Shown here: in pieces, positions 3,001 to 6,000 of the stretch
Layout: each line of letters begins with the position of its first letter
Position numbering within the stretch: position 1 is the stretch's first letter
NCBI RefSeq assembly: GCF_057098645.1
Contig: NZ_CM169472.1
Strand: one strand, 5' to 3'
Length of the DNA: 64,000 bases
Position numbers: made by a program

Positions 3001-6000
3001 GGCGGTGCTTTTGCCGTTACGCACCACCCCGTCAGTAGCTGAACAGGAGGGACAGCTGATAGAAACAGAAGCCACTGGAGCACCTCAAAAACACCATCAT
3101 ACACTAAATCAGTAAGTTGGCAGCATCACCTCTTTAAGCATGCCATTAATATTTCTGCAATGCTCAACTGCGCTATTGTAAACATTTTTAACTTCATCAT
3201 TTGTTTCACGAAGCATTTTTACTGTTGTCGGTAGATTCTCGGCTGCATCATATGCTTCATTTATAGTTTTAATTTTCTCTTCTATATTACCAGTTTCAGC
3301 TGCAATTGCAGATATACCTGAATTATATAATTCTAATCTGCGTAAAATTTGCTTTGGTAATAAATTTCTATCTTTCAGCCTCTCAAATGAAAAAAGGTCA
3401 TTAATCCTATGAGAGATATATAACATTGAAATAACATAAGATGGTATAGCGGTCTGTTGAACTGATGCGTTACCATTGTTTATATGATTAATATTTTGCT
3501 GAGCATGATCCAGAGTGTAAATGAGCGCATCAATTACTGCAATGTCATCTGAAGATGGTACAAATTCCTGCATCTGATTAATTCTATCAGATAACATTTT
3601 TGGTAGTTCTATCAGATCCTCTTTATGTAAAAAAGGAAATGTGTACGGCCCAAGGTTTATAAAATCTTCCACAGGGAATACAAGACCATTAAGTGTTGTA
3701 TGTAAATTATCTAGTTTCTCTTTTAATTCAGTTAGTTTTTCGTTCATTAAAAAAATCCTTTATGACGCTATAGAACTTCCAGAGTAATCCGATAAAGATA
3801 TCATAAGACAATATTTTGGTATAAACACTTATTGCGCGCGCTCGTATCCCCGCCACGCCTGCCCGCTTTATGTAGTGGTTTTCATGCACCTGCATGATCT
3901 ACGCAAAAGCCCGCCAGAACTGGCGGGCCTTAACACAAAAGATCCTCAAACGATCATGCGATCTCATGCAGCATAGACATGCGCGCTTATGCAGAATGTG
4001 CAAAATCGTAACATACTCAGTAAGCGTGAAAACTAGAACGTGACAGCCTTGTCAAAGCCAGAAATAATTGTATAAGAAATAGACGAGTTATCAGCCTTGT
4101 TCACTTTGAACTTGGCACCTTTGTAAGCGATAACGTCACTTCCCTTAGAATCTACAGAAAAATCTGTTGTAAATGCTGCACGAGCCATATCGTTTGCAAA
4201 TTCACGATAGGTGAACTTCATTACACCGCCTGCATTTCCATTGTATTCGATAGTCTTAACCAATGAGTTACTAACTCGACACAGCCCATCAGGAACACGT
4301 TTGATAGAAATTTCTGATGCAGTATAAGAAGTACCATTTGGCGGTGATATCTCATTTTTTGCAGCATCGTAACTAACATAATCAACATAGTTACCGATTT
4401 GCCCATAGAGATTTTTTAACGCAACAGCTTGAGGGTTATGATAATTGCGGTAAATTCCATTCCCCTCACTGCAATATGTACCAGCAGCGATAGAAGACAA
4501 TGCACCATTAGCCGCACCAAGTTCTAGTACGTCCGTTTTAAATCCAGTAGCAGATGTGATAATGGGATCGCCCATGTAGGCGGTAGCACTTTGCCCAATA
4601 GCAGGCTTCACCACTTCAATAGCAGTGATATTTCGGTTAGAAGCATGTGGCACGCAACCAGTTAGGATTACAGCAAGAGATATTGGTAACGCTACATTAT
4701 TAATTTTCATTTTTAGCCTATTATTCTTTTCTTGACAAAAAACAAGGCGATATCCGATTGACATCGCCTCTCACTCATATGTAACCCTTTTTGATTAGTA
4801 AAAACAAGCGTCTATTGACAAAATCAATGCAGCCAGCTGTCGTCTTCCCACACCTTCTGCATAATTTTCATCACTTGTTTTCTTTCTTCGTCCAGTTGCA
4901 GTCCGGTCAGTTCCACACCGTTAGAGCTACCTTTACGGATACGGATTACCGTTTTGGGATACAGGGGGCGCAGATTGCGGTAAAGCTCGGATTCAAGGGC
5001 GTCCAGGGTAGACTGGCTAATCTTCTGCTCTTTATCGATCATTATTTCAATGCGCATAAAAGTCACCTCAGCTGATGACATCCATTGAGCGGTTGTATTC
5101 GTGGCTTCTGATTTTTGCCATGAGTTCATCAGTCAATTCAGAAACCCACTGCAGAGCCAGCCCCTTCTCTTCATCACTACACTCACTAGCCGCTACAAGC
5201 TTAAGAAAAAAATCAATGCGCTGGAGCTTCAAAGACTCCAAAAAATAGTCCTGCATCTTTCCTCCTATGACACCACAAGAAATACTGTATGTATAACCAC
5301 TGTTTATATTTACAGTATATAATAATCTTACTGATGTAAAACGTTTTTTTTACGCTTATCAGCTTGATATGCCTGGTATTATTAAGAGCACGAATTGTTA
5401 ACCAGCGTAATTAATACAGGTTCCGCCACTTATCATCTTCCTGCAAACGCTGGTTCCGATAGAAGATACGCAGGCCTGCTCCTGACGGAATACTGCCGCC
5501 GCGAAGGAGTAAATCGACCTCTTTCTCGCTGCCATCAAATCCTCTGGATTTCAGTTCATAGACGAGCTGCTGTCGTTGATGGTCTGTAATTCGCTGTTTG
5601 TAGTCTCTACGCCGTTTCGGTTTCACCAGACGTAACCTTGCAGCCAGTTCCCGGCGCTCCTTTTTGTTCATACTGTGCAGGTAATCGTGCAACTCCTTGT
5701 CATCCATGCGGGTAAAGTCCGTTCTGGGGTCCCCATCAGCTGATTTATCTTTCTCCTGTTGGTTCAAATTTTCAGCAAGGGGACAGTTATTGCCACGAGT
5801 CCAAGGGGCGCAAGCGCCCTGGTCGGCTGCCGCCTCCTGAACGTCAACGGCCTTACGAACCATTTTCCACTTCACTGCATGAGTACAAATCTTGCCCTCT
5901 GCAATGGGTGACCAGATGCCATAAATACGAATACCGTGATCGCCATAGGCGGTCGGCTCTTCGTTAATTTCATAAGCTGTTCTGATAAGGTGATATTTGC

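Follow-up and report, generated by a model that had tools for sequence, protein, structure and literature searches.

Results

Identification of a split tum operon in a Fels-2-like prophage

Analysis of a 64,000-nucleotide stretch of contig NZ_CM169472.1 (NCBI RefSeq assembly GCF_057098645.1; hereinafter, the window) identified a locus that in all likelihood, with a probability that we put at about 0.85, is the SOS induction operon of a Fels-2-like prophage (Peduoviridae, 186 lineage) in its split, tumA-tumB form. The split tum module is already known, both from GenBank, where tumA and tumB of PSP3 are annotated, and from the literature, so that the module in the window is an ordinary, described DNA-damage switch. 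On the minus strand, just after the replication gene A, which ends at 5411, a LexA box is followed by a 62-aa ORF, a 10-nt spacer that includes a ribosome-binding site (RBS) and a 77-aa ORF of the DinI family; the LexA boxes (5283-5317) lie directly downstream of gene A (Table 1). The initial annotation had proposed a tum-like module of this composition, and its outline holds throughout: the DinI-family ORF starts 10 nt after the 62-aa ORF and has its own RBS; the antirepressor-like and DinI-like parts are separate cistrons, with the TGA of the first at 5070-5068 and the ATG of the second at 5057; and the position is equivalent to that of tum in phage 186, where p95, the LexA site and tum come directly after gene A. 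The window thus has a TumA of about 60 aa, followed by a 77-aa DinI-like TumB, under one predicted LexA-controlled promoter, rather than both parts in a single 146-aa polypeptide, and the split is kept in all Fels-2-type relatives.

The region shows 96.7% DNA identity to Salmonella phage Fels-2, and the locus is 98% identical to Klebsiella P2-like phages and 100% identical to prophages of E. coli HS and RM14721. The module is found in about one fifth of the complete E. coli genomes (1,124 of 5,426). The closest known counterpart is the set of Fels-2 genes STM2728, STM2726.1 (STM2727) and STM2726 of S. Typhimurium LT2, which share with the window the gene order, the spacing, the double LexA box and the third gene; the two TumB proteins are 100% identical in amino acid sequence and the TumA proteins 96.8%. 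The Fels-2 and window copies differ at two bases of the box 2 spacer (TG to CA), and the window copy carries IS1 and IS21-family insertions.

Table 1. Features of the prophage in the window
Feature	Position	Strand	Description
Third gene	4033..4710	-	225-aa predicted lipoprotein, signal peptide ending LTGC; Fels-2 STM2726
Terminator-like hairpin with T tract	4734..4770	-	From terminator scan; 11-pair stem, then GTTTTTTGTC; between tumB and the next gene
tumB	4824..5057	-	77-aa DinI-family protein; own RBS GAGGTG (5069-5064); Fels-2 STM2726.1/STM2727
tumA	5068..5256	-	62-aa predicted antirepressor; Fels-2 STM2728; RefSeq WP_001154431.1, 'hypothetical protein'
LexA box 2	5283..5302	-	CAGTGGTTATACATACAGTA; overlaps box 1, between -10 and RBS
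LexA box 1	5298..5317	-	TACTGTAAATATAAACAGTG; core CTGT-N8-ACAG at 5300-5315, exact pattern match
p95-like promoter (predicted)	5312..5340	-	-35 TTTACA (5340-5335), 17-nt spacer, -10 TACTGT (5317-5312); read from the sequence by analogy to the annotated 186 p95
Replication gene A, C-terminal two-thirds	5411..7416	-	Pfam Phage_GPA, E 1.2e-127; 5' part at 10056-10470
IS21-family element	7417-10055		2.64 kb, splits gene A; IstB_IS21, E 2.4e-60
cI	13251..13820	+	186-type immunity repressor, presumed target of TumA

TumA and its link to the N-terminus of Tum

The tumA start codon is preceded by AGGAGG, and comparison with SopEPhi and Klebsiella phages yields dN/dS values of 0.06-0.07 at dS of about 1, which identifies the 62-aa ORF as a real gene; both tumA and tumB are under strong purifying selection. 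The structure predicted for TumA is a helical hairpin (helices 2-23 and 28-61, pLDDT 89), and a PDB sequence search with TumA returned no match. TumA is labeled 'hypothetical protein' in RefSeq and sometimes 'levan regulatory protein' in UniRef, and PHROGs assign it no function.

The correspondence between the 62-aa product and the N-terminal part of 186 Tum, which the initial annotation had raised, does not appear at the level of BLASTP, which produces no alignment of the two proteins, but emerges from profile comparisons. TumA matches phrog_698 (E 5.9e-38), the same family is matched among the PHROG profiles by the 70 N-terminal residues of 186 Tum (E 6.7e-6), and phrog_8554 and phrog_1993 are matched by both. 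Direct comparison of TumA with the Tum N-terminal family by hhalign aligns residues 3-43 with residues 3-43 (P 1.2e-4, with a probability of only 55%), and the family alignment is gap-free, with E7, R13, L20, C26, A34 and E40 near-invariant. Taken with the context, these weak profile signals suggest a remote rather than strong homology of the 62-aa protein to the Tum N-terminus, in register over residues 3-45.

PSP3 likewise has, after gene A, a TumA of about 60 aa and a 77-aa DinI-like TumB with a LexA box upstream and a homologous CI, and its tumA is annotated as 'similar to 5' end 186 tum; UV induction of prophage' and its tumB as 'similar to dinI and 3' end of 186 tum'. However, the TumA proteins of PSP3 and the window share only about 15% identity, and PSP3 has a single LexA box and other downstream genes. 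According to Lemire et al. 2011, tum of both Fels-2 and PSP3 is split in two, the upstream half being the antirepressor (PMC3121763); for PSP3, the assignment there is a personal communication, cited second-hand (PMC3121763). A literature search on the names TumA and TumB found nothing relevant. The split tum module is also reportedly covered by Bunny et al. 2002, a paper that Lemire 2011 cites.

The close relatives of the 186-type N-domain include both fused and stand-alone forms. The matches to the Tum N-terminus include no full-length 146-aa entry and mix true stand-alone proteins with truncated contig ends, so that they give no ratio of fused to split forms. In the relatives with TumA only, which lack a DinI-like gene (ESSI2_ev015, Cronobacter ESSI-2 and Yersinia vB_YenM_06.16-2), the small gene is still preceded by a perfect LexA box; in the Yersinia phage, the small gene is annotated as 'tum protein'.

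TumB and the tumA-tumB junction

The assignment of the second ORF to the DinI family, with likeness to the C-terminal part of Tum, is borne out by a Pfam DinI (PF06183) match that spans the whole profile (positions 1-63 of 63; E 6.6e-23; 81.3 bits, gathering threshold 24.2) and by 41% identity to residues 71-145 of 186 Tum. TumB also matches the structure of E. coli DinI (PDB 1GHH, E 2.7e-6), in an alignment that spans all of TumB and takes in the acidic C-terminal helix. Against the NCBIfam DinI equivalog NF007893, TumB scores 42.7 bits, below the cut-off of 111; as judged by sequence, TumB belongs to a paralogous phage branch and is not the chromosomal dinI.

The TGA stop of tumA overlaps the GAGGTG RBS of tumB. 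The two genes are in different reading frames, the distance from the start of the TGA to the ATG being 13 nt, and therefore the split in this lineage is not a simple in-frame stop codon, unlike in PSP3, where the cistrons are in the same frame and a stop plus one codon apart, compared with the 10 nt between the window cistrons. A hairpin at 5079-5062, spanning the tumA stop and the tumB RBS, was considered as a translational-coupling device and discarded: it does not stand out in folding energy (z = -1.04), and SopEPhi and the Klebsiella relatives have not kept the stem.

The 186 counterpart resembles the window locus in the position after A, the TACTGT -10 inside the LexA box, the antirepressor and DinI-like regions, the partial terminator (in the window a putative one) followed by a third gene, and a 186-type CI as the target (presumed in the window). 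Unlike the split genes of the window, 186 Tum is one 146-aa polypeptide, although additional internal starts yield a free DinI-like product besides, and 186 has a single LexA box. In the Gifsy-1 and Gifsy-2 prophages (gfoA/gftA), a LexA-repressed operon also combines a small trans-acting antirepressor with a DinI homologue (PMC3121763), as is predicted for the window. In these lambdoid phages, however, the order is reversed, with dinI first, and the antirepressor and repressor families are different.

TumB could instead be the active part of the module, which would then be an SOS-modulating 'moron' tuning the RecA of the host, with the 62-aa ORF an unrelated protein or a leader without an anti-CI role. 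TumB is indeed a confident DinI homologue, prophage dinI homologues are common LexA-regulated genes, and the 62-aa protein has neither an assigned function in RefSeq and PHROGs nor BLASTP similarity to Tum. We nevertheless consider this improbable: the relatives without any DinI gene retain the LexA box and the small gene, the profiles link TumA to the Tum N-terminus in register, its dN/dS is 0.06, and the upstream gene of PSP3 is reported as the antirepressor.

Downstream hairpin and third gene

The terminator-like hairpin occupies the place of the 186 partial terminator t95a, and its function as a terminator here is presumed from that position. The third gene matches phrog_1353 (E 4e-105, function unknown), with no Pfam, NCBIfam or PADLOC assignment, and lies where 186 has orf97, to which it is unrelated. 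As a candidate orf97, the third ORF (225/243 aa; the length of 243 aa coincides with that of Orf97 by chance) was rejected, being without similarity to Orf97 (E 4.7). The Salmonella microarray paper on the mutagen MX lists STM2726 in one operon with STM2727 and STM2728 (PMC2225428).

State of the prophage

The window CI is 33% identical to 186 CI over the full length (E 8e-38) and 35% identical to PSP3 CI; the identical gene is named 'phage repressor protein CI' in RefSeq. In addition to cI, the apl-like gene, cII, fil and int are still present in the prophage. A further strong LexA-like box (14167-14186, 24.8 bits) is located 29 nt upstream of int.

The insertion in gene A was located by a BLAST comparison with E. 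coli RM14721, whose prophage is intact. Because gene A is broken by this IS21-family element, induction could not yield productive phage growth in this copy. An IS1 is found in the adjacent cargo gene. With the prophage thus defective, the module may have lost its role in induction in this genome. The tum region is intact (100% identity), and the IS insertions may be recent, as their flanking DNA matches that of intact prophages at 99.9-100% identity.

Given the interrupted gene A and the IS1 in the neighboring cargo gene, the module might be a leftover of a dead prophage that is still LexA-regulated and has an effect, if any, only in trans, through crosstalk with another 186/Fels-2-type repressor or through modulation of the host SOS response. 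The full integrity of the tum region would fit such a role, and in Salmonella, prophages are known to influence one another through antirepressors that act in trans (PMC3121763). This possibility, to which we likewise assign little weight, bears on the condition of this copy rather than on what the module is; moreover, cI, the apl-like gene, cII, fil and int persist, the insertions may be recent, and no second 186-type CI happened to be noticed in the window.

Promoter and LexA boxes

The 186 p95 promoter is annotated with a -35 ttcaca, a -10 tactgt and a LexA site beginning at the -10, and the window has the same layout, with the -10 of the p95-like promoter inside LexA box 1. A generic sigma-70 promoter scan lists no promoter upstream of tumA because TACTGT matches only three of the six consensus positions.

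The CTGT-N8-ACAG LexA box that had been noticed some 45 bp upstream of the 62-aa ORF is an exact match at 5300-5315, 44 nt from the ATG. With a LexA matrix trained on a set of 24 SOS boxes of E. coli (training median 19.5 bits, minimum 12.5), the 20-mer of box 1 (5298-5317) scores 22.9 bits, above every shuffle (17.4 bits for the best of 20). What had been described as an overlapping weaker half-site is indeed a second site, but a full box rather than a half-site: box 2 is conserved and scores 15.8 bits, which is inside the training range but below the best shuffle. Box 1 is conserved in Fels-2, SopEPhi, 500465-1, ST512phi13.6 and ST13phi12.1; both boxes are kept in diverged relatives where the flanking DNA and the synonymous sites are saturated; and a LexA box is found at the same place in every relative examined, 186 and PSP3 included. 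The bare CTGT-N8-ACAG pattern occurs three times in the window, against 0.72 expected, and the other two matches are absent from the 12 best sites of the matrix scan of the window.

The control of the module by the SOS response, as initially proposed, agrees with the published induction of the near-identical Fels-2 genes, STM2727 being induced 5.5 to 14.8-fold by the mutagen MX (PMC2225428). It is hardly credible that a palindrome arisen by chance in AT-rich intergenic DNA accounts for the match and that SOS has no part in the expression of the two ORFs: 4 of 100 shuffles reach three pattern matches and the generic scan lists no promoter at the site, but the full 20-mer is far above all shuffles, both boxes are conserved, the position is shared by all relatives examined, and the Fels-2 genes respond to a DNA-damaging mutagen.

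The two boxes follow the colicin-type register CTGT-N8-(A/C)CAGTGG-N8-ACAG and align position by position with the operator that precedes a ColE1-type colicin gene, a 35-nt double box with the same geometry and a similar sequence (TACTGTAAATATAAACAGTGGTTATACATACAGTA in the window and AACTGTATATAAAACCAGTGGTTATATATACAGTA on the colicin plasmid). The ColE1-type operator is plasmid-borne and governs an operon for a lethal toxin and lysis, whereas the window site belongs to a prophage switch. The two overlapping SOS boxes of colicin genes bind two LexA dimers and prevent untimely expression (PMC2994835); by analogy, and from the conservation of both boxes, binding of two LexA dimers with tight and delayed induction is predicted at the phage site, where the double box may set a higher induction threshold, an effect that it has in colicin genes. 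The double box is a feature of the Fels-2 type, in contrast to the single box of 186, PSP3 and the ESSI-2-like and Yersinia relatives. As a tentative and rather doubtful generalization, Fels-2-type prophages might carry a small LexA regulon of their own, consisting of the colicin-style double operator, with a predicted delay of induction until damage is severe, and the int box. No description of the double operator or the int box was found in the literature searched, to which Bunny et al. 2002, the primary Fels-2 paper, did not belong.

Discussion

The observations on the split tum operon are compatible with the following scheme, in which the window copy presumably behaves as its relatives do. 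In an undamaged cell, LexA would be bound to the two overlapping boxes, across the -10 hexamer and start region of the p95-like promoter, keeping the operon silent. DNA damage would activate RecA and trigger the self-cleavage of LexA, and the promoter would fire once both boxes are free. The helical 62-aa TumA would then bind the 186-type CI of the prophage and keep it off its operators, derepressing the early lytic promoter, much as 186 Tum sequesters CI after the release of p95 by LexA (PMC7708051). TumB, a DinI homologue translated from its own RBS, would bind RecA filaments and modulate the SOS signal rather than inactivate CI. A variable third gene, here one for a lipoprotein, would follow after a weak terminator.

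The split tum module as such matters little for discovery, since it is documented in GenBank and in the literature; renaming TumA as an SOS-controlled antirepressor would be justified. The double colicin-like operator amounts to a testable difference in the induction threshold between Fels-2-type and 186-type phages, and the int box, if real, would make the supply of integrase, in the integrase lineage found here, SOS-dependent as well. Finally, related repressors could still be affected in trans by an SOS-inducible antirepressor that is intact although its prophage can no longer replicate.

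Organization of the tum operon

Read from the coding strand, the module agrees with the initial annotation in all coordinates, spacing and gene order, with both LexA boxes located between gene A and the two small cistrons. In the Fels-2-type lineage, tumA and tumB occupy different reading frames, in contrast to PSP3, where they are separated by a stop and one codon.

Table. Features of the prophage regions and of the compared loci (minus-strand operon elements as read from the coding strand)
Feature	Position	Strand	Remarks
Replication gene A	7318-5411	minus	Pfam Phage_GPA, E 1.2e-127; directly upstream of the tum module
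-35-like TTTACA	5340-5335	minus	17-nt spacer to TACTGT
TACTGT	5317-5312	minus	
35-nt stretch TACTGTAAATATAAACAGTGGTTATACATACAGTA	5317-5283	minus	holds both LexA boxes
LexA box 1	5298-5317		
LexA box 2	5283-5302		
AGGAGG ribosome-binding site	between 35-nt stretch and tumA	minus	
tumA	5256-5068	minus	62 aa
TGA stop of tumA	tumA/tumB junction	minus	overlaps GAGGTG, then 10-nt spacer
tumB	5057-4824	minus	77 aa
IS1	2363-3130		inside 463-aa hypothetical cargo gene, between tumB and portal gene
Cargo gene ORFs	1580-2308, 3109-3747		
IS21-family element	7417-10055		2.64 kb; inside gene A, ~136 codons from start
istA-like ORF	9934-8288		within IS21-family element
IstB ORF	8514-7516		within IS21-family element
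cI, 186-type repressor	13251-13820		33% identity to 186 CI (E 8e-38), 35% to PSP3 CI
63-aa ORF	13836-14027	plus	between cI and int
LexA-like box AACTGGTTATACATACAGTA	14167-14186	plus	29 nt upstream of int start (14216)
Lambdoid-type region	~26750-40000		
Stand-alone tumA-like gene	L005 1201-1413		phage ESSI2_ev015
Stand-alone tumA-like gene	L006 1177-1359		phage vB_YenM_06.16-2
Stand-alone tumA-like gene	L007 1201-1380		phage ESSI-2
tumA of phage 500465-1	L011 901-1089		

Homology of TumA and TumB to the two parts of Tum

The downstream protein belongs, as proposed, to the DinI family: it scores 81.3 bits against Pfam DinI (cut-off 24.2), matches the E. coli DinI structure 1GHH (E 2.7e-6) and shares 41% identity with residues 71-145 of 186 Tum. 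Given that TumB falls far under the NCBIfam cut-off for chromosomal DinI, it is a phage paralogue.

The low dN/dS of 0.06-0.07 indicates that tumA is a real gene; its product has no family in Pfam or NCBIfam searches and no relative in a sequence search of the PDB. The suggested similarity to the Tum N-terminus is not detectable by BLASTP but does emerge from profile comparisons. TumA belongs to phrog_698 (E 5.9e-38). When the first 70 residues of Tum are compared with this profile, residues 7-44 match its positions 7-44, in register (E 6.7e-6). TumA and Tum both match phrog_8554 and phrog_1993; hhalign aligns positions 3-43 of the two families with each other (P 1.2e-4, probability 55%). In an alignment of 31 sequences, among them PSP3 TumA, a Yersinia 'tum protein' and ESSI-2-like proteins, no gap falls within the first 45 positions, and E7, R13, L20, C26, A34 and E40 are nearly invariant. 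We take the homology to be remote but real. TumA is confidently predicted to fold into a two-helix hairpin (pLDDT 89).

The predicted double LexA operator

The CTGT-N8-ACAG pattern occurs 3 times in the window, with 0.72 expected. Using a 20-nt-wide matrix derived from 24 E. coli SOS boxes (after Lewis 1994 and Fernandez de Henestrosa 2000), whose absolute scores are approximate, we obtained 22.9 bits for box 1, compared to a training median of 19.5 and to 17.4 for the top site in 20 shuffled windows. The overlapping element originally described as a weaker half-site is indeed a second LexA-like site, but a complete 20-mer (15.8 bits), inside the range of real sites although not significant alone. 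It is conservation that decides against chance: both boxes persist in Fels-2, SopEPhi, phage 500465-1 and two Klebsiella phages despite the divergence of the flanking promoter DNA and the saturation of synonymous sites in the adjoining genes (dS 0.8-2).

On plasmid NZ_CP010128, a ColE1-type colicin gene is preceded by a double SOS operator (AACTGTATATAAAACCAGTGGTTATATATACAGTA) that matches the tumA operator in register and is almost identical to it in sequence; in colicin genes, such an operator binds two LexA dimers and blocks untimely expression (PMC2994835). By contrast, 186, PSP3, two ESSI-type phages and the Yersinia phage possess a single box. By analogy with the colicins, it is reasonable to infer that the double operator may give Fels-2-type phages a higher or later induction threshold.

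Fused and split forms among relatives

E. coli HS, RM14721 and other strains harbour prophages with a 100% identical copy of the 641-nt region; it is ~98% identical in many Klebsiella P2-like phages and 96.7% identical in Salmonella phage Fels-2, where STM2728 (62 aa), STM2726.1 ('DinI family protein; similar to TumB of PsP3') and STM2726 are the counterparts. A match was obtained in 1,124 of 5,426 complete E. coli genomes. At the equivalent place, phage 186 carries the annotated promoter p95, whose -10 TACTGT opens the LexA site; downstream of it lie tum, a partial terminator and orf97. In PSP3, tumA is annotated as 'similar to 5' end 186 tum; UV induction of prophage' and tumB as 'similar to dinI and 3' end of 186 tum'.

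Gene A, a perfect single LexA box and the small gene occur together in ESSI2_ev015, Cronobacter ESSI-2 and Yersinia vB_YenM_06.16-2, none of which has a DinI gene. These three relatives are the best internal support for the small protein being the essential SOS-controlled element. The small TumA-like ORF of ESSI-2 is absent from its annotation.

In 186, the DinI-like part is immediately preceded by a GTG start with a strong ribosome-binding site, annotated as yielding a separate short product. The 186 N-domain also has many close homologues, 63-78 aa long, that stand alone; fusion and fission of the two tum parts seem to come easily. The proposed split organization is confirmed; it may be ancestral or derived, as both forms occur among close relatives.

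In phage 500465-1, the most conserved part of TumA, KGLALQW, is replaced by the short out-of-frame stretch RGWLCSG (dN/dS 0.71), and there is a 1-nt gap near the tumB start. Both changes probably reflect compensated frameshifts or sequencing errors, and this copy may be inactive.

State of the prophage and its cargo

Comparison with the intact RM14721 prophage shows that IS1 splits the cargo gene into two ORFs; the intact 463-aa protein has no Pfam family, and PADLOC gives only a weak coiled-coil-like JetC match. From IS1 to the IS21-family element, a stretch that contains the tum operon, the DNA matches the intact RM14721 prophage at 100% identity. The insertion in gene A renders the prophage replication-defective; the tum switch is intact in a phage unable to replicate.

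The third gene product is a predicted lipoprotein unrelated to 186 orf97. The slot after tumB (L009-L013, the compared phage and plasmid loci) contains quite different cargo among relatives. Phage 500465-1 has a TIR-domain protein there, plasmid pCombat13F7-1 a retron St85 effector nearby, and SopEPhi and Klebsiella phages encode other hypothetical proteins. Such variety would fit a hot spot for cargo or defence genes, comparable to the P2 tin/old position.

Other features of the window

The top LexA-matrix match of the window (24.8 bits, above the tum box) is the AACTGGTTATACATACAGTA box, the last 17 nt of which are identical to tum box 2. Three phages with the int allele of the window but other genes upstream, namely 4LV2017 and KP12 of Klebsiella and 813R9 of E. 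coli, retain CTGG-N8-ACAG before int with a changed spacer; RE-2010, whose int is a different one, lacks it. The box may mark an SOS-controlled int promoter.

The 63-aa ORF has a signal-peptide-like N-terminus and several cysteines, no Pfam family, and the RefSeq name hypothetical. The lambdoid-type region, a second prophage downstream of host genes such as hprS, encodes a terminase, a tail fibre, DUF968 and IS3, and shares ~99% identity with prophages found in E. coli O145:H28 strains.

The proposed induction switch

In addition to cI, the prophage carries an Apl-like gene and cII and fil homologues. Going by the sequence and by data on 186, PSP3 and Fels-2, LexA would keep the promoter closed; upon its loss following DNA damage, TumA would be produced and titrate CI off its operators, such that the early lytic promoter fires, and TumB, translated from its own ribosome-binding site, would modulate RecA filament activity.

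Lemire et al. 2011 (PMC3121763) note that Tum resembles a fusion of an antirepressor with DinI, and that tum is split in two in Fels-2 and PSP3. For antirepressor activity in the upstream gene of PSP3, they refer to Bunny et al. 2002 as well as to a personal communication. The lethality of a lexA null mutation in LT2 has been ascribed to Fels-2 induction. The mutagen MX induced STM2727 5.5 to 14.8-fold in a Fels-2-positive Salmonella strain, with STM2726-STM2727-STM2728 listed together in the operon table (PMC2225428), and in 186, Tum is reported to sequester CI after the release of p95 from LexA (PMC7708051). In light of the findings of Lemire et al., the MX induction and the work on 186 Tum, the hypothesis of an SOS-controlled tum-like module is both correct and already published. 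The feature is real and correctly interpreted, a near-identical copy of a known and very common module; what is mildly new is confined to the resemblance of the double operator to that of colicin genes and to the additional LexA-like box before int.
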